Positions 26,384 to 36,531 of a DNA stretch of 64,000 nt are shown here, in pieces. Source of the stretch: an uncultured Chloroflexia bacterium (GTDB lineage: Bacteria; Chloroflexota; Limnocylindria; Limnocylindrales; CSP1-4); assembly GCA_963788375.1 (NCBI GenBank), contig CAWBGT010000027.1, positions 679,020 through 743,019 on the forward strand. The letters run 5' to 3'. Under the pieces are notes generated by a model. That model was given only the letters and a program-made list of their open reading frames with translations, was not told the origin of the DNA and did no database searches. Position 1 is the first letter of the stretch; every line of letters begins with the position of its first letter. The translations under genes and the position numbers were made by a program.

Positions 26384-26468
26384 TGGTGGGCCGGGGCGGA
26401 ATCGAACCGCCAAAGTCGAAGACGAGGGTTTTACAGACCCTTGGGCTCACCACCTGCCCGACCGACCC
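26384..26468 (-). tRNA. tRNA-Tyr (anticodon GTA), type II with a long variable arm, CCA encoded.
   Basis: Hand-folded: acceptor GGGTCGG/CCGGCCC, anticodon loop CTGTAAA, variable arm CGTCTTCGACTTT, T-loop TTCGATT. Confidence 0.85.
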
Positions 26469-26472
26469 ACGA

Positions 26473-26548
26473 TGGTGGAGATGAGGGGACTCGAACCCCT
26501 GGCCTCCGCGATGCGAACGCGGCGCTCTTCCAGCTGAGCTACATCCCC
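26473..26548 (-). tRNA. tRNA-Ala (anticodon CGC), CCA encoded.
   Basis: Hand-folded: acceptor GGGGAUG with G3:U70, anticodon loop TTCGCAT, T-loop TTCGAGT. It is 4 nt from tRNA-Tyr. Confidence 0.9.
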
Positions 26549-26640: not shown

Positions 26641-27540
26641 ATGCCCACCGGTCTTGCGCTCGGCCTGTTCGCCTCGTTCGCGTGGGGAATTGTGGACGTG
26701 ACCGCCGCCGTCTCCACCCGGCTGATCGGGAGCCTGCGGGTGCTGGTGGGGGCACAGCTGGTGAGCCTCGCCGCGCTCGCGCTGATCGCCTTCGCCCAAC
26801 CGGAGCTCCTCGGCGCGGCACCCATCGAGGGCATCGTGGCTGGGTTCCCGCTCGGCATCCTGGCGGCCGCTGCCTATCTCGCCTACTTCACGGCGCTGCG
26901 GATCGGCCCGGTGAGCATCGTCAGCCCGGTGATCATGGCCTACGGCGGCGCAACGGTGATCCTGGCGGTGCTGGTGCGGGGCGAGACGCTGTCGACGCAG
27001 CAGGCTGCCGGAGCCATCCTGGCCACGGCGGGCGTGGTGCTGGCGGGCGTGACCTTCGAGGCAGGTGCGCTGCGGGGGATGCGGGTCGTGGGGCCGGGCG
27101 TGGTCGCGGCGGTGCTGACGCTGGTCGGGTTCGCGGTGCTGACGGTGGGCCTCGCGTCACCTATCCGGGATCACGGCTGGCTGCCGGTGGTGATCGGCTC
27201 GCGGATCGGGAACAACGTCGGTTCGCTGGCGCTGCTGGCCGTGGCCCTGGTGTCGGGTTCGAGGCGGTTCCAGCCGCTCCTGGAGCCGTCGGGCGGGTGG
27301 TCGCGCACCGCGCTGGCGCTGGTCGTGGCCTGCGGTGCATTCGATATCGCGGCCTTCGTGGCCTACGCGATCGGGCTGAGCATCGCGCCGGTGTGGCTGG
27401 TTGGGCTGTCGAGCTCGTTCGGGCCGGTCCTTGCGGTGGCCTACGCGGTGACACGGCTGGGCGAGCGTCCGCACCGGACGCAGTGGGCCGGTCTCGCGCT
27501 GATCGGCGCGGGCGTCGTGGTCCTTGCCGTGGCCTGGTAG
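26641..27540 (+). CDS. EamA/DMT-family transporter (10 TM).
   Basis: Two EamA-like halves. Hydrophobic profile of the ORF 26641..27540 translation. Confidence 0.75.
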   Translation: MPTGLALGLFASFAWGIVDVTAAVSTRLIGSLRVLVGAQLVSLAALALIAFAQPELLGAAPIEGIVAGFPLGILAAAAYLAYFTALRIGPVSIVSPVIMAYGGATVILAVLVRGETLSTQQAAGAILATAGVVLAGVTFEAGALRGMRVVGPGVVAAVLTLVGFAVLTVGLASPIRDHGWLPVVIGSRIGNNVGSLALLAVALVSGSRRFQPLLEPSGGWSRTALALVVACGAFDIAAFVAYAIGLSIAPVWLVGLSSSFGPVLAVAYAVTRLGERPHRTQWAGLALIGAGVVVLAVAW

Positions 27541-27589
27541 CGGCGGACCCGGCGCAGCAGATGATGGGCCCGCGGCCACCATTTCGACC

Positions 27590-27617
27590 TTGACGGATAG
27601 AACAGACGTTCTATTAT
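27590..27617 (+). promoter_or_regulatory. SOS promoter with a LexA box (GATAGAAC-AGAC-GTTCTATT) between a -35 TTGACG and a -10 TATTAT, 11 nt upstream of the imuA' ATG (likely leaderless or short-leader mRNA).
   Basis: GAAC-N4-GTTC palindrome of the Gram-positive/actinobacterial LexA type. Nearly identical to the box upstream of dnaE2. Confidence 0.7.
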
Positions 27618-27627
27618 TGGACGTCCG

Positions 27628-28914
27628 ATGGCTCGCACATCCGACGTCTCCGAGGCTCTCGCAACGCTCCAGGCTCGCTGGGGAGCGGCTGCTCCACGAC
27701 GTGGCGGCGACATGGGGCTCGTGGTCGAGGGCGCGCTGGCCAGGGCGCCGATGCCGGAGCCGGACTCGGAGTCGGATCGGGCCCCGGATCCGCTTGCGCC
27801 AACGCCACTCATGCCGGCCATCCGGCACCGTCCGGGGGTACCGGTCCCGGACGCGGACGGACGGATCGTTTCCACGGGGTTCGCGGAGCTGGACGCCATC
27901 CTGGGCATGGGCGGGCTGCCGCGCTCGGCCACGGTCGCGCTGCGTGGGGACGCGTCGTCGGGCAGGACCACGGTCGCGCTGCGGGTGGCGGCGGAGGCGC
28001 AGGCCGGCGGGGCGATCGTCGCGTGGCTGGACCTGGCCCGCGCCTTCGACCCCGTGGAGGCCGTCGCGCGTGGCATCCGGCCGGAGTGGCTGGTGGTGCT
28101 GACGCCCGTGGACCTGGAGGAGGCGCTCGCCATGGCGGGAGCCCTGCTGGCCGCCCGGACCGTGGACCTGCTGGTGATGGACCTGCCGGACGGCCGTGCC
28201 CCGGCGCTCGCCGGGAAGCGGGTGGGGGACCGGCTGAACCGGCTTGCCGCGCTGGCGAGACGGGCCGGGACGCTGCTCGTCGTCCTGGAGCCCGCGTCCC
28301 TCGGGCGGGGCCTGGCGGCCGCCGTGGAGGCGGCGAGCGGCCTGCGCCTGGAGCTTCGCCGGTCGGGCTGGATCCGCCTGGGCCGGGACGTCGTCGGGCA
28401 GCGAAGCGCCGTGGAGGTGGCCCGCAACCGGTACGGCCCGCCCGGCCGCCGCACCGTCCTCGAGATCCTGTACGCGGAGGGCGGTCCACGGGATGCATGC
28501 CTGCTCCGCCCGGAGCTGCTGGCCGGGCTTGCCGCCCCGGTCGCGCCTCCGGGGACAAGGACTGCGGCTGGCCCGCCGGCAACCGCCGTGCCACCGGCAC
28601 TCACCGATCTGAAAGGCCCCCCGGCATCGATCGATACCCATGCGCCTGCTGCACCTGCTCTGGCCACACCTGCCCCTGCTCCTGGCGAGGACACGGATGG
28701 AGGCACCGACCCCGGGGAGCCACGGCTCCTTGTCGGACGGCACCTCCGGCTCGTGGCCGCCCGGCCCGATCGTCCTCGGCGGCCAACCCTGGATGGACGG
28801 GACCGTGGTGGACGCGGATCCCCTCGCCCGGGCCCTCGGCGTGCGCCGGGGGATCCCGCTCGGGAGCGCCCACCGGCTCGCGCCCGAGGCGACCTTCCTG
28901 GACCTCGCGCCTGA
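27628..28914 (+). CDS. imuA: ImuA' (RecA-fold SOS mutasome accessory protein) with a low-complexity C-terminal tail.
   Basis: RecA/KaiC-like core 'STGFAELDAILGMGGLPRSATVALRGDASSGRTTVALRVAAEAQAGGAIVAWLD'. LexA box upstream. imuB and dnaE2 downstream. Confidence 0.65.
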   Translation: MARTSDVSEALATLQARWGAAAPRRGGDMGLVVEGALARAPMPEPDSESDRAPDPLAPTPLMPAIRHRPGVPVPDADGRIVSTGFAELDAILGMGGLPRSATVALRGDASSGRTTVALRVAAEAQAGGAIVAWLDLARAFDPVEAVARGIRPEWLVVLTPVDLEEALAMAGALLAARTVDLLVMDLPDGRAPALAGKRVGDRLNRLAALARRAGTLLVVLEPASLGRGLAAAVEAASGLRLELRRSGWIRLGRDVVGQRSAVEVARNRYGPPGRRTVLEILYAEGGPRDACLLRPELLAGLAAPVAPPGTRTAAGPPATAVPPALTDLKGPPASIDTHAPAAPALATPAPAPGEDTDGGTDPGEPRLLVGRHLRLVAARPDRPRRPTLDGRDRGGRGSPRPGPRRAPGDPARERPPARARGDLPGPRA

Positions 28915-29953
28915 CGCGGACCGGGACGCGGTCGAAGCCGCCTGCGAGCGGCTTGCCACGTTCAGTCCCGGGATTGCCGGCACGAGCGACGTCACGGATC
29001 CCTCGTTCGGTCGGATCGCCGTCCACGTCGACGGCCTGACGCGCCTGTGGGGCGTGGAGGAGACGCTGGTCGCGCGGATGACGGCGGCGCTTGCCCCGGT
29101 CCTCCCGGGCCGGCCCCGTGCCGGCATCGCTGGGACAGCCTTCGCCGCCTCCGTGGCCGCCGCGCACGCGCAGGAGGGCGGCCCCCCGCTCCTGGTCCCG
29201 CCCGGCGACGACGACCGGTTCCTCGCACCCTACCCGGCGGGGCTGCTCACGCGGGACCCGGACGTGCGGGCGCGACTCGCCCGCTTCGGGCTCCGGTCGA
29301 TCGGGGCCGTGGCGGAGCTCTCGCGCTCCGCGCTGGTGGCGCGCTTCGGCGAGGAGGGAGCGAGGATCCACGCGCATGCCCGCGGGGAGGAGACGGAGCG
29401 GTTCCAGCCGCGCAGGGCCCCGGAGCGGATGGTCCTCGGCCTCTCGCTGGAGCCGTCGGCAGAGGGCCTCGAGGCGGTCCGGTTCGTGCTCCGCCGGCTC
29501 GCGGCGGCATTGGCGGAGCAGCTCGCGACGCGCGGGCGCGCGGCGGGGCTGGCGCGACTCGTCGTCACCCACGACCTGGCCTTCGCGCGTCGCGGGACGC
29601 CGCCGGAGCTCCGCCTCGAGCAGCGGTTCCCGGAGCCAACGGCGGATGCCGAGGCCATCGAGCGCCTCCTCGTCGCCCGTCTCGAGCAGATCCCGCCGCC
29701 GGCCGCCGTGGCGCGTCTCGAGCTGGAGCTGGCGCTGGTGGAGCCTGCCCGGGGCCAGCAGCTCCCGCTGTTCACCCCGCAGGCGGCACGGGACGCACGT
29801 CTCGGCTGGCAGCTGGCGCGCCTGGCGATCGCGTTCGGGTCGGACCGGGTGCGGAGGGTGGAGCTGGCCGACACCGAGGCCCCGCTCGCCGAGGCCCGCT
29901 GGCGCTGGCATGCCGTTGCCGGGGCGGCGGTGGTGGGCGAGGAACGGCGATGA
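28640..29953 (+). CDS. imuB: ImuB, a catalytically inactive Y-family polymerase paralog of the SOS mutasome.
   Basis: DinB-like fold regions ('IAVHVDGLTRLWGVEETLVARM...', 'FGLRSIGAVAELSRSALVARFG'). Position between imuA' and dnaE2. Start is uncertain and overlaps the imuA' 3' tail. Confidence 0.75.
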   Translation: MRLLHLLWPHLPLLLARTRMEAPTPGSHGSLSDGTSGSWPPGPIVLGGQPWMDGTVVDADPLARALGVRRGIPLGSAHRLAPEATFLDLAPDADRDAVEAACERLATFSPGIAGTSDVTDPSFGRIAVHVDGLTRLWGVEETLVARMTAALAPVLPGRPRAGIAGTAFAASVAAAHAQEGGPPLLVPPGDDDRFLAPYPAGLLTRDPDVRARLARFGLRSIGAVAELSRSALVARFGEEGARIHAHARGEETERFQPRRAPERMVLGLSLEPSAEGLEAVRFVLRRLAAALAEQLATRGRAAGLARLVVTHDLAFARRGTPPELRLEQRFPEPTADAEAIERLLVARLEQIPPPAAVARLELELALVEPARGQQLPLFTPQAARDARLGWQLARLAIAFGSDRVRRVELADTEAPLAEARWRWHAVAGAAVVGEERR

Positions 29954-30190
29954 CCCGTCTGCTGCACGAGCATCCGCTGGTCGACGCGGAGCTGGACCCG
30001 GGAGGACGCCTTGTGGCGATCCGCTGGAACGGCCGGCGGGAGCCCGTCGAGGTCTGCAACCGCTGGCGGGTGGAGGAGTCCTGGTGGCGGGAGCCGATCG
30101 CCCGGGACTACTTCAAGGTGGTCGGGGACGTCGTGGCTGGCACTCGTCTACCTGGACCGGACGGCCGGGACGTGGCACCTGGAGCGGCTC
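29950..30190 (+). CDS. Small conserved-looking ORF (~80 aa) translationally coupled to imuB (ATGA overlap), with an apparent frameshift in a G-run near 30130.
   Basis: 'MTRLLHEHPLVDAELDPGGRLVAIRWNGRREPVEVCNRWRVEESWWREPIARDYFKVVGD' continues in the +1 frame as '...SWLALVYLDRTAGTWHLERLYD*'. Confidence 0.4.
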
Positions 30191-30265
30191 TACGATTGAC
30201 CCGGCCCAGGATGGTCAGGCAGGAGTCGGAGCGTGGCGGCGACCGGTCGGACGACGGTCGGGAAC

Positions 30266-30374
30266 GTCAGCGGAGCGCCGGCGACCCGAACGCGATCGAG
30301 ACCACGAGCAGCACGAGGAACAGCCCCACGACCAGGGCGAGGGCGCCGAGGTCACGCGGTCGTGTCGTCTGCAT
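30266..30374 (-). CDS. Single-TM micro-peptide (35 aa: MQTTRPRDLGALALVVGLFLVLLVVSIAFGSPALR).
   Basis: Read by hand from the reverse strand. Below the ORF-track cutoff. In tandem with a second, similar peptide. Confidence 0.3.
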
Positions 30375-30478
30375 TCGTTCCCATTCCCCCAAAGTTCGGA
30401 CCGGTTCCCGGCCGGTCGCCGGCGTATGGACGCCGGGCCCCCGCCAGATGTTGCGGCAGCCAGACGCTCCCGCGCCGG

Positions 30479-30578
30479 ATCAGGCCGGCATTCCCGCGAA
30501 GACCACCAACACCACGAGCACGGCCAGCAGAAGCACCAGCAGGCCGGCGCTCACGAACTCGCGCGTCTTGGGTTCCAT
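30479..30578 (-). CDS. Single-TM micro-peptide (32 aa: MEPKTREFVSAGLLVLLLAVLVVLVVFAGMPA).
   Basis: Read by hand from the reverse strand. Strong AGGAGG RBS 7 nt upstream of the ATG. Below the ORF-track cutoff. Confidence 0.35.
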
Positions 30579-30603
30579 GCGGTCGCGCCTCCTCTTGTCC
30601 GGT

Positions 30604-31206
30604 TCAGCCCTCGCCGCCGGCACAGCCGGCGCCGTAGAGCACGATGATCATCGTCGATTCGCCCGCCGGGCGGAAGGTCGTCTGGATCCGGCACTCCGGG
30701 AGGTCCGAGACCGTGTCAAGGACACGGCTCCCGTCCTCGAGCGCGGACGACAGGTTGTCGGTCGTGAAGCCCAGCTCCTCGAGCGTGTCGCGGTACCAGC
30801 GGGCGACCGCGCTCACGTCGTCGCCAGTCAGCCAGGCACCACTCGCCGGGCCGCCGGACGGCTCCACGGCACTGGCCCCCGGGTAGACCGGGAACCCCTC
30901 GGGGACGGCGTCCAGGATGGTGCCCCAGTCGGTTGCCGTCGTGGACGTTGCGGCCGGCTCCTCGGGTGGGACGTCCGACGGACCGCCCGGGACGATGGTC
31001 GGCGGCGGTGCCTGCGTCAGGACCGGGGTGGGCTCGATCACACCGGGCGTCGATGCCGGGCCGGCCACCGACGGCGCTGCCGTTGTGGATGGCCCGGGTC
31101 CTCCGCATGCGGCCAGGCCGGCGACCATGCCGGCCAGTGCCAGTGTCCACATGAGGAGGACAGGAGTGGAGGTCGGGCGGCAAGGCTCGATGCGCATCGG
31201 CCTCAT
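30604..31206 (-). CDS. Lipoprotein (hypothetical); start is uncertain.
   Basis: 'MWTLALAGMVAGLAACGGPGPS' signal peptide with lipobox, then a Pro/Thr linker and a ~110-aa domain. Confidence 0.45.
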   Translation of the reverse strand: MRPMRIEPCRPTSTPVLLMWTLALAGMVAGLAACGGPGPSTTAAPSVAGPASTPGVIEPTPVLTQAPPPTIVPGGPSDVPPEEPAATSTTATDWGTILDAVPEGFPVYPGASAVEPSGGPASGAWLTGDDVSAVARWYRDTLEELGFTTDNLSSALEDGSRVLDTVSDLPECRIQTTFRPAGESTMIIVLYGAGCAGGEG

Positions 31207-31700
31207 GGTAGCGGCCACCCGGCGACGACACGCCCGGGCGAGCAAGGACCCTCGCCGCCCCAGCGGCGAGGGTCCTTTCGGCGGTCTCCGGGCTGCCCAA
31301 GCTCCGGGGACAGGTCGGCGGTCGCGATGGCGCGACCGCCGCCGGTGCGCTAGACGGCCGCCTCCGCGATTGCGGGAAGGAGGCCGAAGATTGCGATCGC
31401 GACCAGCGCGGCCGCCGCCAGCCGCAGGAGGAGCTCGCGGGCGACGCGGTGGTCGGGGCGGTGGCCCAGGTTCGTGATCACGCGCATCAGACGCGCGACC
31501 GGCTGGTTTGGTTGCGCTCCGGGACAGGCAATTTCCGGCGACGAGCAAGCTCCGGCGACGCGCAAGCTCCGGCTGCGCCTGGTTCGCAGCCTACAATTCC
31601 CCGGCCCGCCGCCGCCCAGCTCCGCACCGCCCCGCCGAGGACCTCGTTGACCCTGCGCCCGCTCCAGCCCACTGCCCCACCGTCCAAGTCGACGCTCGTC

Positions 31701-32333
31701 CTGCCGGGACGCTTTCGGGCCGCGGTGTTCGACATGGACGGGCTCCTCCTGGACACGGAGCCGCTGTGGCACGACGCCGAGCGCGAGCTGCTCGAGCGGC
31801 ACGGCGACACGTTCTCGCCCGCCGACATGGAGGCGTCCCACGGCCGGGCGGTGTCCGAGACCGCGACGGCCTACTCGGGGCGGCTCGGGCTGCCCCCGGA
31901 GGTCATCGAGCGCGAGATCGTCGAGATCATGCTCGCCCACTACGCGGCCGGCGCCACACCGTGCGCCGGAGCGCGGGAGCTGGTCGATGCCCTCGATGGA
32001 CGGCTGGCGCTCGCCGTCGCGTCCAACACCTCGGCGGGGCTGGTGCGCCGGGCGCTGGACACCTCGGGCCTGGCGATGCTGCAGGTGGTGGTCTCGGGGG
32101 CGGACATGGGCCGGCCCAAGCCCCTGCCGGACGTCTACCTGGCGGCCTGTCGGGCGCTGGGCGTGGCGCCTGGCGATGCGGTCGCCTTCGAGGATTTGCC
32201 GATGGGCGTCCGCTCTGCCGTCGATGCCGGCCTGTTCGTGGTCGGGGTTCCGGATCGCGACGACGTGGACCTCGCGACTGCCGGGGCACACGTCGTGCTG
32301 AGGTCGCTGGTGGAGGTCGTCGTCAGCGCCTGA
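31701..32333 (+). CDS. HAD-superfamily hydrolase (beta-phosphoglucomutase / phosphatase-like); start is approximate.
   Basis: Motif I 'AAVFDMDGLLLDTEPLW'. Motif III/IV 'VVSGADMGRPKPLPDVYL...VAFEDLPMGVRSAVDAGLFVVGV'. Confidence 0.7.
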   Translation: MPGRFRAAVFDMDGLLLDTEPLWHDAERELLERHGDTFSPADMEASHGRAVSETATAYSGRLGLPPEVIEREIVEIMLAHYAAGATPCAGARELVDALDGRLALAVASNTSAGLVRRALDTSGLAMLQVVVSGADMGRPKPLPDVYLAACRALGVAPGDAVAFEDLPMGVRSAVDAGLFVVGVPDRDDVDLATAGAHVVLRSLVEVVVSA

Positions 32334-32353
32334 CGCCCGGAGGGACTGGTATC

Positions 32354-32373
32354 GATAGAACAGATGTTCTATC
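32354..32373 (+). promoter_or_regulatory. LexA box GATAGAAC-AGAT-GTTCTATC (perfect palindrome), 30 nt upstream of the dnaE2 start.
   Basis: Differs at only 2 positions from the imuA' box. Confidence 0.7.
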
Positions 32374-32403
32374 ATTCCGATCCGCCCCCCGGAGACCGTC
32401 GCC

Positions 32404-35400
32404 GTGGCCCCTCCTCCCTACGCCGAGCTGCACTGCCACAGCCACTTCTCGTTCCTGGACGGGGCGTCCGCTCCCGACGATCTCGTTGCCCAAGCCGTGG
32501 AGCTGGGGCTGGCCGGTCTCGCCATCACGGACCACCAGGGCCTGTACGGGGCCGTCCGGTTCTCCGCCGCCGCGGAGGCCGCGGGGCTGCGCCCGGTGAT
32601 CGGGATCGAGGTGGAGCTCGTCGATGCGGCGGTGCCGGACCCTGCCGGGATCGTGGTGCCGGCGAGGCGTGCATGGAAGCCGGGGCGTCGAGCGCCCGTC
32701 CAGCCCGAGGCACCCCGGGTGATCGACGGCCGTCCTGTCCGCCCTCGCCCCGAGCGCGCCCGGCTGCCGGGCCATCGGCAGGTGGTCAAGGAGGATCACC
32801 GGGGAGTCGGCGAGGCGCAGCGTGGCCCGCACCTGGTCCTGCTGGCGCGCGACGCGACGGGCTGGCGGAGCCTGTGCCGGCTGGTGTCGCGGGCGAACCT
32901 AGCCGGCACGAAGGCGGTCCCCGGGTTCAGCCAGGCTCTCCTGGCCGAGCACGCCGAGGGGCTGATCGCGCTGTCTGGCTGCCGCCACGGGGAGGTGGCG
33001 AGACGCCTTCGGGCGGGGGATCGCGAGGGGGCGCGGGCCGTGGCGGAGCGGTACGCGGTGCTGTACGGGCCGCGCGGCACGGGCGGTGGAAGGGGCACGA
33101 GCGGTGGAATGGGCGCGGCCGGGGGCGCGGCGGGGGGGCCGGCCGCCGCCGGCTTCGTCCTGGAGCTCACGCACCACCTGCTGCCCGACGACGACTGGCT
33201 CGCATCCGAGACCGCGCGCCTGGCCGAGGAGCTGGGGCTGCCGGTGGTGGTCACCAACGACGTCCACTACGCCCTCCCCGAGGGCCGCGAGCTGCAGGAC
33301 GTCCTGACCGCGATCCGGCACGGACGGTCCCTGTCGGACCTGGCGGACCTGCGCCGGCCGGACGGGGAGTCGTATATCAAGGGTGCGCCGGAGCTCCTTG
33401 CCCTGCCACCCGGGGAGCCGGCCACCGAGGCCGCCGACCCGGTGCTGGCCCGGGCATGGCGGGCAGGGATCGCGGCATCGGTCGAGATCGCCGCGGCCTG
33501 CCGGGTCGAGCTGGCGTTCGAGCGCTACCGCTTCCCGGGCTTCGCCGTACCGAAGGGGCAGACGCCGTTCAGCCACCTGTCTGAGCTGTGCTGGGAGGGC
33601 GCCCGGCGCCGGTATCACCCGCTCACGCCGGCCGTGCTCCGGCAGCTGGCCCACGAGCTGGACGTCATCGAGCGGACCGGCCTCGCGGAGTTCTTCCTCA
33701 TCTGCTGGGACCTGATGCAGTTCGCGAAGTCGCGTGGCATCCCGGCGCAGGGACGGGGGAGCGCGGCGGGTTCGATCGTGACCTACGTGCTGGGTATCGC
33801 GCGGGTGGACCCGATCCGTCACGAGCTGCTGTTCGAGCGGTTCATCAACGAGGGGCGGACGGCCTACCCGGACGTCGACATCGACTTCTCCTCCGAGCGG
33901 CGGGAGGAGGTGATCCAGTACGTCTACGAGAAGTACGGCCCCGAGCACACCGGGATGGTCTGCAACCTCGTCACGTACCGGGCCCGGTCGGCGGTCCGCG
34001 AGGTGGGGCGCGCGCTGGGGTTCCCGGGACCGCTGGTGGACCGGGTGGCGAAGGCGCTCGAGACGTACGACTCGGTGATGGTGCGGCGGGACCTGGAGGC
34101 CGAGGGCGGGTTTGGGGCGTTCTTCGCGCAGCCGGGCGAGGGCACGGGCGGGGGCACGGGCGGGGGACCCTCGGACGCCGTGCGGGGCTCGCGACGGGTC
34201 GTGGCCGAGCTGGAGGTGGCCCGCGCGGCCGCCCTGACCGGCGAGCGCGGGCTCACGGACTCGATGGGGCAGCTCAACCACGCGCGTGGCGGGCGGCTCG
34301 GGATGGACCTCGCGGCGGCCAGCGGGACCTGGGCGGGCGCTCCAGGCTCAGCACCTGCGATCCGGCCCGGTGGGCGGGCTGACGACGAGGGCGGTCCGGG
34401 TGACACCCCGGCCAGCGTCGCCTGGCTGCGGGCGGGCCGTGGGACCGGATCCAGCGTCGCCCGCATCGGGCCGGAGCCCGTGAAGGTCCCGGACCCGGCC
34501 CCGGACTCGGTCCCGGACCCGGCACGCCACGAGGGATCCGTCGCGGGCCTCTCGGACTGGGAGCGCTGGCTGGAGCTGTGCGCCCGCATCGACGGCTTCC
34601 CTCGCCACCTCTCGATCCACAGCGGCGGCATGCTGGTGACCGCAGCCCCCCTCATCGACATCGCCCCCATCGAGCGGGCGACCATGCCGGGGAGGGTCGT
34701 CGTCCAGTTCGACAAGCGCGACGTCGAGACGATGAAGCTGATCAAGCTCGACCTGCTCGGCCTCGGCATGCTCGCCGCCATCGACGAGACGGTCCAGCTC
34801 ATCGAGCACGACTGCGCCGTCTGCCTGGACCTCGACCGCCTGCCGGAAGAGGTCCCCGAGGTCTTCGCCATGCTCCAGGCGGCGGACACCGTGGGCGTGT
34901 TCCAGGTCGAGAGCCGGGCGCAGATGCAGACCCTGCCCAAGTCGCGTCCGGCCAGCCTCGACGACCTGGTGGTGGAGGTGGCGATCATCCGGCCGGGCCC
35001 GATCCAGGGGAACGCTGTCCACCCGTACCTGCGTCGCAAACAGGGCCTGGAGCCGGTCACGTACCTCCATCCCAGCCTGGAGCCGATCCTCCACGACACC
35101 CTGGGCGTGATCCTCTATCAGGAGCAGGTGATGAAGATCGCGATCGACGTCGCGGGGTTCACGCCTGCGGGCTCCGACGGGTTCCGGCGGGCGATGGGGA
35201 CGTATCGCTCCGCCGGCGAGATGGAGCGGCTCCACGTGGAGTTCGTCGAGGGTTGCCGACGCGTCCATGGGATCCCGCCCGACGACGCCGAGGAGCTGTT
35301 CCGCCGCTGTGCCGCATTCGCCTCGTTCGGGTTCGCGAAGAGTCACGCCGCGGCGTTCGCCCGGACCGCGTACGAGTCCAGCTTCCTCAAGCTGTTCTAC

Positions 35401-36531
35401 CCGGCGCAGTTCACCGTCGGGCTGGTCAATGCGCAGCCGATGGGCTTCTACCCCGTCGAGGTGCTGGTCAACGACGCGAAGCGCCACGGGGTCGCGGTCC
35501 TCCCGGTGGACGTCAACCGGAGCTCGTATCGCACGACGACCGAGTGGGTCGGCCGCCCCGGCTGGGCGCTGGCGGGGCCCGCAGGCGATGACGGCTCGTC
35601 CGACCGGGATGCCGGCGAGGCACTGCCCGACGGGTGCGGGATCGACGCCCGCCCGACCCCGGTGCGCTCGAGCGCGTGCGTGATCCCCGGCGCGGCGGCG
35701 CGGGAACGCTGGGCCGCCGAGAGCATGACCGGCTGGGGGGTCCGCATCGGGCTGCACCTGGTCAAGGGGATCGGCGAGGAGCACCAGGCGCGCCTGGACG
35801 CGGAGCTGGCTCGCGGGCCCTACACGGACCTGGCCGACTTGGTCGAGCGGACGGGCCTCGCCGAGGACGTTGTGGAGCGCCTGATCCGGGCGGGTGCACT
35901 GGATTCGCTGGGACGTCCTCGCCGGGAGCTGCTGTGGCAGCTGCGCGAGGTGGCCGGGGCGGCGAAGGGACGCGTGGACGGGAAGAGGCGGGGCCCGAGA
36001 GGGATCACGCGAGCCGCGGGCCGGCCGGTGGACCTGCGCCTGCCCGCCACGGAGGCGCCGGCGCTCCCGGCGTTCACGGAGCCAGAGCGCTTGGGAGATG
36101 CCTACGCCGTGGTGGGGCTGGACGCCCGGCGCCAGGTCGTGGCGCTGTTCAGGGGTGCGCTGGACCGGATGGGCGCCGTGCCCAACGCGGCGCTGGCGGA
36201 CCGGCGCCCGGGAAGGGTCCTTCTCGGCGGACTCGTGGTCACGCGGCAGCACCCGATGACGGCACGAGGCACCGTGTTCCTTGCGCTGGAGGACGAGACG
36301 GGCATGGTCAACGTCACGCTCTGGCCCAATACATGGCAGCGGCTTCGCTCCGTCGTCCGGCGCCACGCGCTGCTGCTGGTGGACGGGGACCTGCAACGGG
36401 AGGGCGAGGTCGTGAACGTCGTGGCGCGGGAGGTGCGACCGCTGGTCGAGGCCGCCTCGGAGGCAGGCGGGCCCTCCTCACCGGCAGGGGTCCGCCAGAT
36501 GGGCCAGGCGGGGATGCGGCGCCTCGGCTAG
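32404..36531 (+). CDS. dnaE2: Error-prone DNA polymerase III alpha-like subunit DnaE2 (ImuC), with long low-complexity insertions.
   Basis: PHP domain 'ELHCHSHFSFLDGAS'. Pol III alpha core ('IERTGLAEFFLICWDLMQFAKSRGI', 'PDVDIDF'). OB-fold C-terminus. LexA box upstream. Confidence 0.9.
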   Translation: MAPPPYAELHCHSHFSFLDGASAPDDLVAQAVELGLAGLAITDHQGLYGAVRFSAAAEAAGLRPVIGIEVELVDAAVPDPAGIVVPARRAWKPGRRAPVQPEAPRVIDGRPVRPRPERARLPGHRQVVKEDHRGVGEAQRGPHLVLLARDATGWRSLCRLVSRANLAGTKAVPGFSQALLAEHAEGLIALSGCRHGEVARRLRAGDREGARAVAERYAVLYGPRGTGGGRGTSGGMGAAGGAAGGPAAAGFVLELTHHLLPDDDWLASETARLAEELGLPVVVTNDVHYALPEGRELQDVLTAIRHGRSLSDLADLRRPDGESYIKGAPELLALPPGEPATEAADPVLARAWRAGIAASVEIAAACRVELAFERYRFPGFAVPKGQTPFSHLSELCWEGARRRYHPLTPAVLRQLAHELDVIERTGLAEFFLICWDLMQFAKSRGIPAQGRGSAAGSIVTYVLGIARVDPIRHELLFERFINEGRTAYPDVDIDFSSERREEVIQYVYEKYGPEHTGMVCNLVTYRARSAVREVGRALGFPGPLVDRVAKALETYDSVMVRRDLEAEGGFGAFFAQPGEGTGGGTGGGPSDAVRGSRRVVAELEVARAAALTGERGLTDSMGQLNHARGGRLGMDLAAASGTWAGAPGSAPAIRPGGRADDEGGPGDTPASVAWLRAGRGTGSSVARIGPEPVKVPDPAPDSVPDPARHEGSVAGLSDWERWLELCARIDGFPRHLSIHSGGMLVTAAPLIDIAPIERATMPGRVVVQFDKRDVETMKLIKLDLLGLGMLAAIDETVQLIEHDCAVCLDLDRLPEEVPEVFAMLQAADTVGVFQVESRAQMQTLPKSRPASLDDLVVEVAIIRPGPIQGNAVHPYLRRKQGLEPVTYLHPSLEPILHDTLGVILYQEQVMKIAIDVAGFTPAGSDGFRRAMGTYRSAGEMERLHVEFVEGCRRVHGIPPDDAEELFRRCAAFASFGFAKSHAAAFARTAYESSFLKLFYPAQFTVGLVNAQPMGFYPVEVLVNDAKRHGVAVLPVDVNRSSYRTTTEWVGRPGWALAGPAGDDGSSDRDAGEALPDGCGIDARPTPVRSSACVIPGAAARERWAAESMTGWGVRIGLHLVKGIGEEHQARLDAELARGPYTDLADLVERTGLAEDVVERLIRAGALDSLGRPRRELLWQLREVAGAAKGRVDGKRRGPRGITRAAGRPVDLRLPATEAPALPAFTEPERLGDAYAVVGLDARRQVVALFRGALDRMGAVPNAALADRRPGRVLLGGLVVTRQHPMTARGTVFLALEDETGMVNVTLWPNTWQRLRSVVRRHALLLVDGDLQREGEVVNVVAREVRPLVEAASEAGGPSSPAGVRQMGQAGMRRLG

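Follow-up and report, generated by a model that had tools for sequence, protein, structure and literature searches.

A candidate four-part SOS mutasome with a standalone ImuB-C gene in uncultured Limnocylindria (Chloroflexota)

Background

The gene content, promoters and conservation of a mutagenesis cassette were investigated in DNA of an uncultured Limnocylindria bacterium. The analysed stretch, hereafter called the window, comprises 64,000 nucleotides (nt) of GenBank assembly GCA_963788375.1 (contig CAWBGT010000027.1), and the cassette lies at positions 27590-36531. It holds imuA', imuB, an 82-codon gene for a standalone C-terminal domain of ImuB (imuB-C) and dnaE2, and operator-like sites suggest that it is a DNA-damage-inducible locus for an error-prone polymerase. 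An earlier interpretation made from the DNA letters (the sequence-only reading) had recognised an imuA'-imuB/dnaE2 mutasome locus, with which the domain and family matches agree. That reading had placed the locus in Actinobacteria; the relatives of its ImuB show that it belongs to Chloroflexota (Limnocylindria).

Results

Locus structure and related genomes

Species-representative genomes were scanned with the ImuB of the window, and 80 loci (L001-L080) were obtained as the comparative set. These loci lie in metagenome-assembled genomes (MAGs) labelled Chloroflexota, Chloroflexia or Candidatus Limnocylindria/Limnocylindrales, with a few exceptions that are evidently mis-binned, and their ImuB proteins are 64-89% identical to that of the window. 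The gene order EamA transporter gene, imuA', imuB, 82-codon gene, minus-strand lipoprotein gene and dnaE2 was found in essentially all 80 loci. The window and 75 of the 80 loci have imuA' at the head of the operon, and the contigs of the other five stop short of that position. The G+C content of the window is about 72%, and it is even across the locus region (0.70-0.75). The genes of the putative mutasome are as follows.

27628..28914, plus strand: imuA', an inactive RecA paralogue with a RecA-like core at about amino acids 77-285, a Pro/Ala linker and an Arg-rich tail.
28640..29953, plus strand: imuB, for a homologue of Y-family polymerases (437 amino acids) that is catalytically dead and has IMS and IMS_C domains (Pfam).
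29950..30199, plus strand: imuB-C, a standalone 82-codon gene with its ATG overlapping the imuB stop (ATGA) and with a frameshift in the window.
32404..36531, plus strand: dnaE2, an error-prone C-family polymerase of 1375 amino acids with a GTG start (NCBIfam and Pfam).

Accessory proteins and polymerase

In ImuB, the positions of DinB residues D103 and E104 are taken by G and R, the N-terminal strand (LLWPHLPL) is devoid of Asp, and a clamp-type motif, QLPLF, is present. The protein ends in GEERR followed by a TGA at 29951-29953, and the C-terminal ImuB domain is absent from imuB. On sequence and model evidence, the 82-codon gene that begins on this stop codon is a standalone ImuB-C, and ImuB is thus split into two genes in Limnocylindria. 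This identification follows from profile matches to the C-termini of inactive Y-family proteins, from matches to DUF6504 and from a predicted beta-barrel. A profile built from the Limnocylindria ImuB-C sequences retrieved 490 proteins, which are mostly standalone and 82-86 amino acids long, and it also matched the extreme C-termini of two inactive Y-family proteins, P0258 (538 amino acids) and P0247 (501 amino acids, IMS and IMS_C domains, ImuB-C match at 441-501). PF20114 (DUF6504) was matched by 63 of 99 members of the ImuB-C family. The AlphaFold2 model of ImuB-C (predicted local distance difference test score 91.7) is all-beta with eight strands, and a fold search with it against the PDB returned no match. 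The model agrees in this with the C-terminal domain of ImuB, which is described in the survey PMC12926913 as a beta-barrel of novel fold that makes contact with DnaE2's PHP domain as well as with ImuA. A separate observation concerns P0216 (371 amino acids), in which a RecA-like (ImuA-like) N-terminal domain is followed by a C-terminal ImuB-C domain, so that this fusion joins both accessory modules.

The imuB-C start overlaps the imuB stop by 4 nt (ATGA or GTGA) in 62 of the 80 loci, and the gene is intact in 79 of the 80 relatives. In the window, it is read as 59 codons followed by a second frame to the TGA at 30197-30199, and the two parts jointly match the 82-amino-acid protein. Among the relatives, ImuB-C is the best conserved protein of the locus, with a median identity of 82% compared with 77% for ImuB, 75% for DnaE2 and 73% for ImuA'. 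The only fused relative is L020 (10001-11656), where the ImuB frame reads through a Gly/Arg linker of about 45 amino acids into the ImuB-C domain; this state is either a natural fusion or an indel error. The 82-codon frame might alternatively encode a conserved hypothetical protein outside the mutasome, with ImuB merely truncated, and the Limnocylindria sequences indeed had no direct match in Pfam or NCBIfam, while the window copy is frameshifted. We consider this very improbable, given the top-ranking conservation of the product, its coupling to imuB, the in-frame fusion in L020, the DUF6504 matches and a family that takes in C-terminal parts of inactive Y-family proteins and the C-terminus of one RecA-like protein.

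The assignment of ImuA' was examined by family models and alignment. The protein matches Pfam RecA (2.6e-26) and scores far below the equivalog cutoffs of RecA and ImuA; the proteobacterial ImuA model gives 29.8 bits, with a cutoff of 150. Its core is 31% identical to E. coli RecA, with R opposite K72 and A opposite E96 of the latter, and gaps stand in the alignment where the DNA loops L1 and L2 would lie. The position of the Walker lysine is occupied by K, R, A or T in related ImuA' proteins. As judged from these alignments, the protein is an inactive RecA paralogue of the ImuA' kind that lacks the ATPase site.

The sequence-only reading had ended imuA' before imuB. The imuA' frame, in fact, continues without a stop until 28912-28914 and thereby ends 275 nt inside imuB (28640-28914), in another frame. 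The imuB start at 28640 is supported by an in-frame stop 27 nt upstream, by a conserved N-terminus typical of ImuB and by an aligned start codon in 64 loci. In all 64 loci tested, imuA' stops at one of two aligned sites, 200-308 nt into imuB, and the stop is always a TGA built from a CCT (Pro) codon plus GAN in the imuB frame. Among the imuB Pro codons, 4.7% are CCT, and at each of the two sites the clade without the stop has CCC or CCG. Loss of the stop-forming T would lengthen the ImuA' of the window by 812 codons. The imuA' stop within imuB therefore seems to be under selection. The overprinted tail of ImuA' has low complexity and is rich in Arg. A phase change in G+C content at third codon positions near 28480 had raised the suspicion of a frameshift in imuA'; this was rejected, since the Pro/Ala linker raises the G+C content of the first two codon positions and the open reading frame (ORF) is equally continuous in all relatives.

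DnaE2 matches the NCBIfam model NF004225 'error-prone DNA polymerase' with 1035 bits (cutoff 939) and carries PHP, DNA_pol3_alpha, finger, HHH_6 and OB domains, i.e. the full set of the Pol III alpha subunit. Long low-complexity insertions rich in Gly, Ala and Pro were observed between its recognised domains, at about amino acids 567-719, and the dnaE2 matches in the relatives are between about 4.1 and 5.0 kb long.

Promoters and putative operators

The following promoter and leader elements were located in front of imuA' and dnaE2.

27590..27595, plus strand: -35 hexamer TTGACG of the imuA' promoter, from a consensus scan, with TTGAC at the same column in about 68 relatives.
27596..27615, no strand: LexA-type operator 1, with the core TAGAAC-AGAC-GTTCTA at 27598-27613, from a pattern search and the relatives.
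27612..27617, plus strand: -10 hexamer TATTAT of the imuA' promoter, from a consensus scan, with TANNNT at a fixed column in the relatives.
32354..32373, no strand: LexA-type operator 2, with the core TAGAAC-AGAT-GTTCTA at 32356-32371, overlapping the -10 hexamer TATCAT at 32370-32375.
32391..32394, plus strand: Shine-Dalgarno GGAG, placed 9 nt before the dnaE2 GTG within a C-rich leader, with 'ccccccGGAGa' conserved in the closer relatives.

The two palindromes, GATAGAACAGACGTTCTATT before imuA' and GATAGAACAGATGTTCTATC before dnaE2, stand where the sequence-only reading had described near-identical 20-nt boxes. They are identical at 19 of 20 positions, and the likeness spans 23 nt including the -10 hexamer (21/23) and then ends. 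When the window was searched with GATAGAAC-N4-GTTCTAT at no more than two mismatches, only these two boxes were found within 64 kb, and 100 shuffles gave no match. A relaxed search with TAGAAC-N4-GTTCTA yielded two further matches with three mismatches, both within coding sequence, which is the chance level.

The element TTGACG-16 nt-TATTAT is the only sigma-70-like site found by the consensus scan in 27400-32500; it scores 10/12, and 0.1 such sites are expected by chance. Operator 1 occupies the spacer between its hexamers and overlaps the -10. The imuA' ATG lies at 27628, and no Shine-Dalgarno sequence (no GGAG) is visible before it. The sequence-only reading had correctly set the box between TTGACG and TATTAT; its distance of 11 nt to the ATG needs correction, as 10 nt separate the -10 hexamer from the ATG. 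This 10-nt spacing is invariant in the relatives. Since only 10 nt lie between TANNNT and the ATG and GGAG is lacking, an almost leaderless imuA' transcript is predicted, with a leader of about 1-5 nt. The same prediction had been made earlier and agrees with the present one, and the layout of -10 and ATG is kept across about 70 related genomes.

Conservation of the palindromes was assessed across the comparative set. GAAC-N4-GTTC precedes imuA' in 71 of 75 loci, in most cases at a distance of 28 nt from the aligned start, and it precedes dnaE2 in 67 of 69. When the loci were aligned on the box, TTGAC, the box, TANNNT and ATG held fixed columns and the flanks varied freely. The leader of dnaE2 is of the C-rich GGAG type in the closer relatives and has a short-leader design like that of imuA' in the more distant ones. 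A separate LexA-type palindrome inside the promoter of each transcription unit, as claimed before, is therefore a feature conserved across about 70 related genomes. Additional GAAC-N4-GTTC sites in L057 and L069 had no clear gene associated with them. In most related genomes the imuA' box and the dnaE2 box are unlike each other. Hence, the near-identity of the two boxes in the window reflects a shared consensus rather than a recent duplication, and the operator duplication proposed by the sequence-only reading is not upheld.

Further sequence elements were noted around the imuA' start. An inverted repeat, GGACGTCcGATG-N7-CATCcGACGTC, spans the start codon (27619-27655 in the window), with a predicted hairpin of about -16 to -21 kcal/mol in the closer clade and a shorter form, ACGTCCG/CGGACGT, in the distant clade. 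Its 5' arm begins 2 nt past the -10 hexamer and is thus expected to be mostly untranscribed from the imuA' promoter. The string 'ACGTCCGATG' after TANNNT occurs once per locus, at imuA' only. An element 'GACGTCCGATG' after the -10 was considered as a general promoter feature and dismissed, for it too occurs once per locus, at imuA' only.

Relation of the palindromes to LexA

GAAC-N4-GTTC is the LexA motif of Firmicutes and Actinobacteria, and variants of it are reported from Chloroflexi. This Gram-positive type of LexA operator (Cheo box) has also been reported for Dehalococcoides, a member of Chloroflexi, according to work cited in PMC4951493. The Limnocylindria boxes share with the Cheo box the dyad, the spacing and the position over the promoter. 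They differ from it in their flanks, which prefer TA (TAGAAC...GTTCTA), and the 3' TA forms the first two bases of the -10 hexamer at both promoters.

Neither lexA nor recA was found in the window or in L001-L080 by tblastn with B. subtilis LexA and E. coli RecA as queries. A pattern scan of metagenomes for a box upstream of a LexA coding motif, the pattern itself requiring the box, gave 120 lexA loci. Those with high G+C content carry CTAGAAC-N4-GTTCTAG beside a promoter with TTGAC and a -10, and their NCBI labels are LexA and 'Chloroflexota bacterium'. The lexA promoters of Chloroflexota can be summarised as (T/C)AGAAC-N4-GTTCT(A/G). In L206, which was fetched by protein similarity alone, two such dyads lie 45-75 nt before lexA. 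None of the retrieved lexA assemblies is among those holding the imuA' locus, and none was tied to Limnocylindria. As a side observation, the dyad stands directly downstream of the -10 in Chloroflexota-type lexA promoters (L081-L200, e.g. L144, L081, L117 and L186), unlike at imuA' and dnaE2, where it sits between -35 and -10. L206 also has a HAD gene before lexA; a HAD gene as an SOS-linked neighbour was nevertheless discarded, because the likeness is generic (33% over 83 amino acids).

The palindromes could instead be operators of a regulator other than LexA (of XRE type or another damage-response factor) or mere promoter-associated sequence. LexA-independent damage regulons exist in other phyla (PMC12288472, PMC8682763), and no lexA or recA site was seen in the same genome, which leaves room for such a regulator. 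The same dyad, on the other hand, precedes annotated lexA genes in Chloroflexota MAGs and is placed where a repressor would block RNA polymerase, and this explanation is accordingly regarded as distinctly improbable. LexA is the regulator that we favour, with support for this identity at the level of the phylum only.

Region between imuB and dnaE2

The stretch from the imuB stop (29953) to the dnaE2 start (32404) measures 2450 nt and opens with imuB-C. The genes that follow imuB-C are listed below.

30267..30374, minus strand: tm1, a single-helix membrane micro-protein of 35 amino acids, convergent with imuB-C and with a coding-like pattern of G+C content at the three codon positions.
30480..30578, minus strand: tm2, a membrane micro-protein of 32 amino acids, with about 42 syntenic matches.
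30604..31206, minus strand: lipoprotein gene with the lipobox LAAC and an uncertain start (31206, 31197 or 31152).
31350..31487, minus strand: tm3, a membrane micro-protein of 45 amino acids and first gene of the minus-strand block, with about 40 syntenic matches.
31647..32333, plus strand: HAD-IA phosphatase-like gene (HAD_2, 8e-22) with an uncertain start.

The syntenic homologues of tm1 amount to 74 tblastn matches, essentially one per locus, and the lipoprotein gene is syntenic in about 74 of the 80 loci. The lipoprotein matched no Pfam or NCBIfam family. The HAD gene lies between tm3 and dnaE2 in 13 loci and in three more on truncated contigs (49-83% identity) and is absent from the others; it is a subclade-specific addition. 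A few relatives have larger insertions between tm3 and the dnaE2 promoter, and about 21 relatives have tm3 divergent from dnaE2, with 60-130 bp separating the tm3 start from the dnaE2 box. Of the intervening genes named by the sequence-only reading, the lipoprotein and the HAD hydrolase stand; its two micro-peptides become three conserved minus-strand micro-ORFs, and imuB-C had been missed.

It had also been supposed that the cassette was remodelled by an insertion, and a comparison with related genomes had been proposed as the check. In this account, a contiguous imuA'-imuB-dnaE2 operon was recently broken by 2.4 kb of inserted DNA, and duplication of the operator served to maintain the SOS control of dnaE2. 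The 19/20 identity of the boxes (21/23 with the -10) would suit such an event, as would the HAD gene, which only some of the relatives have beside the dnaE2 promoter. The comparison, by contrast, shows that the tm3-lipoprotein-tm2-tm1 block separates the two halves in nearly all of the 80 relatives, including those with an ImuB identity as low as 64%. Both boxes are present in the relatives too and mostly differ from each other, the likeness does not go past 23 nt, and no step in G+C content (0.70-0.75) marks the segment. A recent insertion is thus extremely improbable.

The membrane block might itself have an SOS function, its products acting as small division inhibitors like SidA or YneA and sharing the dnaE2 operator as a divergent promoter. 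The short distance from tm3 to the dnaE2 box in about 21 relatives and the retention of the block at the same position throughout the order speak for this. In 13-16 relatives and in the window, however, the HAD gene stands between block and box, with no second GAAC-N4-GTTC found before tm3, and the block proteins showed no homology to known inhibitors in Pfam or NCBIfam. An SOS role of the block is consequently unlikely, less remote than the insertion account. Because tm3 has no second box in front of it in loci with an intervening HAD gene, we treat tm3-lipoprotein-tm2-tm1 as an old, conserved neighbour outside the mutasome rather than a member of the regulon, and the HAD gene likewise as a neighbour. 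The block may be under shared divergent control with dnaE2 in other species.

Several other observations were made in and near this region. The tm3-lipoprotein spacer contains a 14-bp G+C-rich hairpin, AAGGACCCTCGCCG-ccCCA-GCGGCGAGGGTCCTT (31244-31277), which has no T-run and was not called by the terminator scan. In the intergenic region between tm3 and the HAD gene, a tandem 17-nt repeat, CCGGCGACGAGCAAGCT / CCGGCGACGCGCAAGCT, with a partial third copy occupies 31536-31579. An Rfam search of 27590-36531 gave no known RNA; two adjacent tRNA genes on the minus strand (26387-26548, Rfam) are located shortly upstream of the EamA transporter gene, which in turn precedes the imuA' promoter.

Discussion

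Comparison with known mutagenesis cassettes

A split mutagenesis cassette is well known from M. tuberculosis, in which imuA'-imuB and a separate dnaE2 are both controlled by LexA (Erill 2006, Warner 2010; reviewed in PMC3901139 and PMC10421592), and for such cassettes in general 'almost all configurations exist' (PMC3901139). Common to M. tuberculosis and the Limnocylindria locus are imuA' and imuB lying together with dnaE2 apart, a GAAC-N4-GTTC LexA-type site on each unit, an inactive RecA-like ImuA', a dead Y-family ImuB with a clamp motif, and DnaE2 as the catalytic subunit. Since the two-operator split was already known from M. tuberculosis (PMC3901139), it does not indicate unusual remodelling. 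The Limnocylindria locus differs in that its halves are 2.45 kb apart, the C-terminal domain of ImuB is encoded by a coupled gene of its own, the overlap of imuA' with imuB measures 200-308 nt, and the phylum is Chloroflexota. Compared with the canonical ImuA(')-ImuB-DnaE2 system, ImuB-C is a separate gene in 79 of the 80 relatives and not the C-terminus of ImuB.

Standalone ImuB-C genes have been described in another setting. Systems composed of DnaE2X, an inactive PolY (iPolY), a standalone ImuB-C and RecA, e.g. that of Kyrpidia tusciae, are presented in passages of PMC6511836 and PMC12926913, the latter a 2026 survey in which iPolY plus ImuB-C is named 'split ImuB'. The same passages describe frequent LexA control and a RecA presumed to act in the role of ImuA; standalone ImuB-C systems are reported in PMC6511836 as having no imuA in the operon and genome. 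According to PMC12926913, ImuB-C is retained even in the most reduced ImuBs. As in these systems, a small gene for a standalone ImuB-C comes after an inactive Y-family gene in the Limnocylindria locus, in association with DnaE2; the locus differs from them in having a dedicated ImuA' encoded first in the same operon. The combination of ImuA', iPolY, free ImuB-C and DnaE2 is not among the types given in the passages of PMC6511836 and PMC12926913 considered here.

Two further operons bear on this comparison. The Deinococcus deserti operon lexA-imuY-(243-bp ORF)-dnaE2 is mentioned in PMC3901139; it may be of the split-ImuB type, as judged from the size and position of the 243-bp ORF, for which no assignment has been published. 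In Geobacter sulfurreducens, a lexA-imuB-C-polY operon (PMC6511836) has a standalone ImuB-C co-transcribed with a Y-family gene under SOS control, as in the Limnocylindria layout. Unlike in Limnocylindria, the G. sulfurreducens polymerase is active and the operon is without DnaE2 or ImuA.

Proposed function of the locus

We put a probability of about 0.8 on the reading of this locus as a four-part SOS mutasome of Limnocylindria with two putatively LexA-repressed promoters. By the known pathway, LexA would occupy both palindromes and repress both promoters, and DNA damage would lead to RecA-stimulated cleavage of LexA and to the release of both units. The first promoter would give a transcript with almost no leader, from which imuA' (running 275 nt into imuB), imuB and imuB-C (starting on the imuB stop) would be translated. 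The second promoter, with the palindrome over its -10, would drive dnaE2 through a C-rich GGAG leader of about 25 nt. ImuB, as a dead Y-family polymerase, would tether the complex to the beta clamp through QLPLF and would be bound by ImuA', the RecA paralogue devoid of the ATPase Lys and Glu and of the DNA loops. The free 82-amino-acid ImuB-C beta-barrel would provide, in trans, the docking surface for DnaE2 and ImuA that is part of ImuB itself in the canonical case, and DnaE2 would then carry out mutagenic lesion bypass.

Several points weigh against this interpretation. The imuB-C copy of the window is broken by an extra A at 30128 (GGGGACG, compared with GGGGCG in five relatives). The putative LexA binding is argued from motif type and phylogenetic footprinting, and most of the lexA loci used for comparison were chosen by a pattern that required the box, which makes this part of the argument circular. 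Induction of both units is suggested by operator-like sites and their conservation, and the roles given to ImuB-C and ImuA' are those proposed in the literature from AlphaFold models and from work on mycobacteria. The extra A at 30128 reflects either a base-calling or assembly error or a recent inactivation that leaves the mutasome of this strain defective. A real frameshift would deprive the strain of the docking module and probably make its mutasome inactive; an assembly error would mean that the locus is intact. Searches for an independent record of the strain with the window ImuB (two alternative starts) and tm1 gave no database match.

Implications for the origin of the mutasome

The two-promoter split layout is the ancient and ordinary state of this order, and its operator type is established. 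In the 2026 survey, ImuA-ImuB-DnaE2 is proposed to derive from DnaE2-iPolY-ImuB-C-RecA, and standalone ImuB-C is described only where ImuA is absent (PMC12926913, in the parts dealing with these systems). We tentatively suggest, at slightly less than even odds, that the four-subunit mutasome of Limnocylindria is an intermediate between the RecA-dependent split ImuB and the canonical ImuA-ImuB-DnaE2, with a maintained dual-coding region of imuA' and imuB. If so, a RecA paralogue would have been recruited already, and the ImuB fusion would not yet have been made or would have been secondarily undone; L020 is fused. The dual-coding part of the proposal, if true, would mean that a rare CCT codon holds the stop and that the overlap supplies ImuA' with its Arg-rich tail.

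Conclusion

A widespread soil and freshwater lineage with both ImuA' and an unfused ImuB-C would offer a natural test case for the scenario of mutasome origin. The module that docks DnaE2 becomes available for study as a separate protein of 82 amino acids, and about 140 aligned operator instances are at hand for the Limnocylindria SOS motif. The long, conserved overlap of imuA' and imuB is an unusual gene architecture. The main value of the locus thus lies in a split ImuB alongside ImuA' and in this long conserved overlap, rather than in the split cassette with two boxes.

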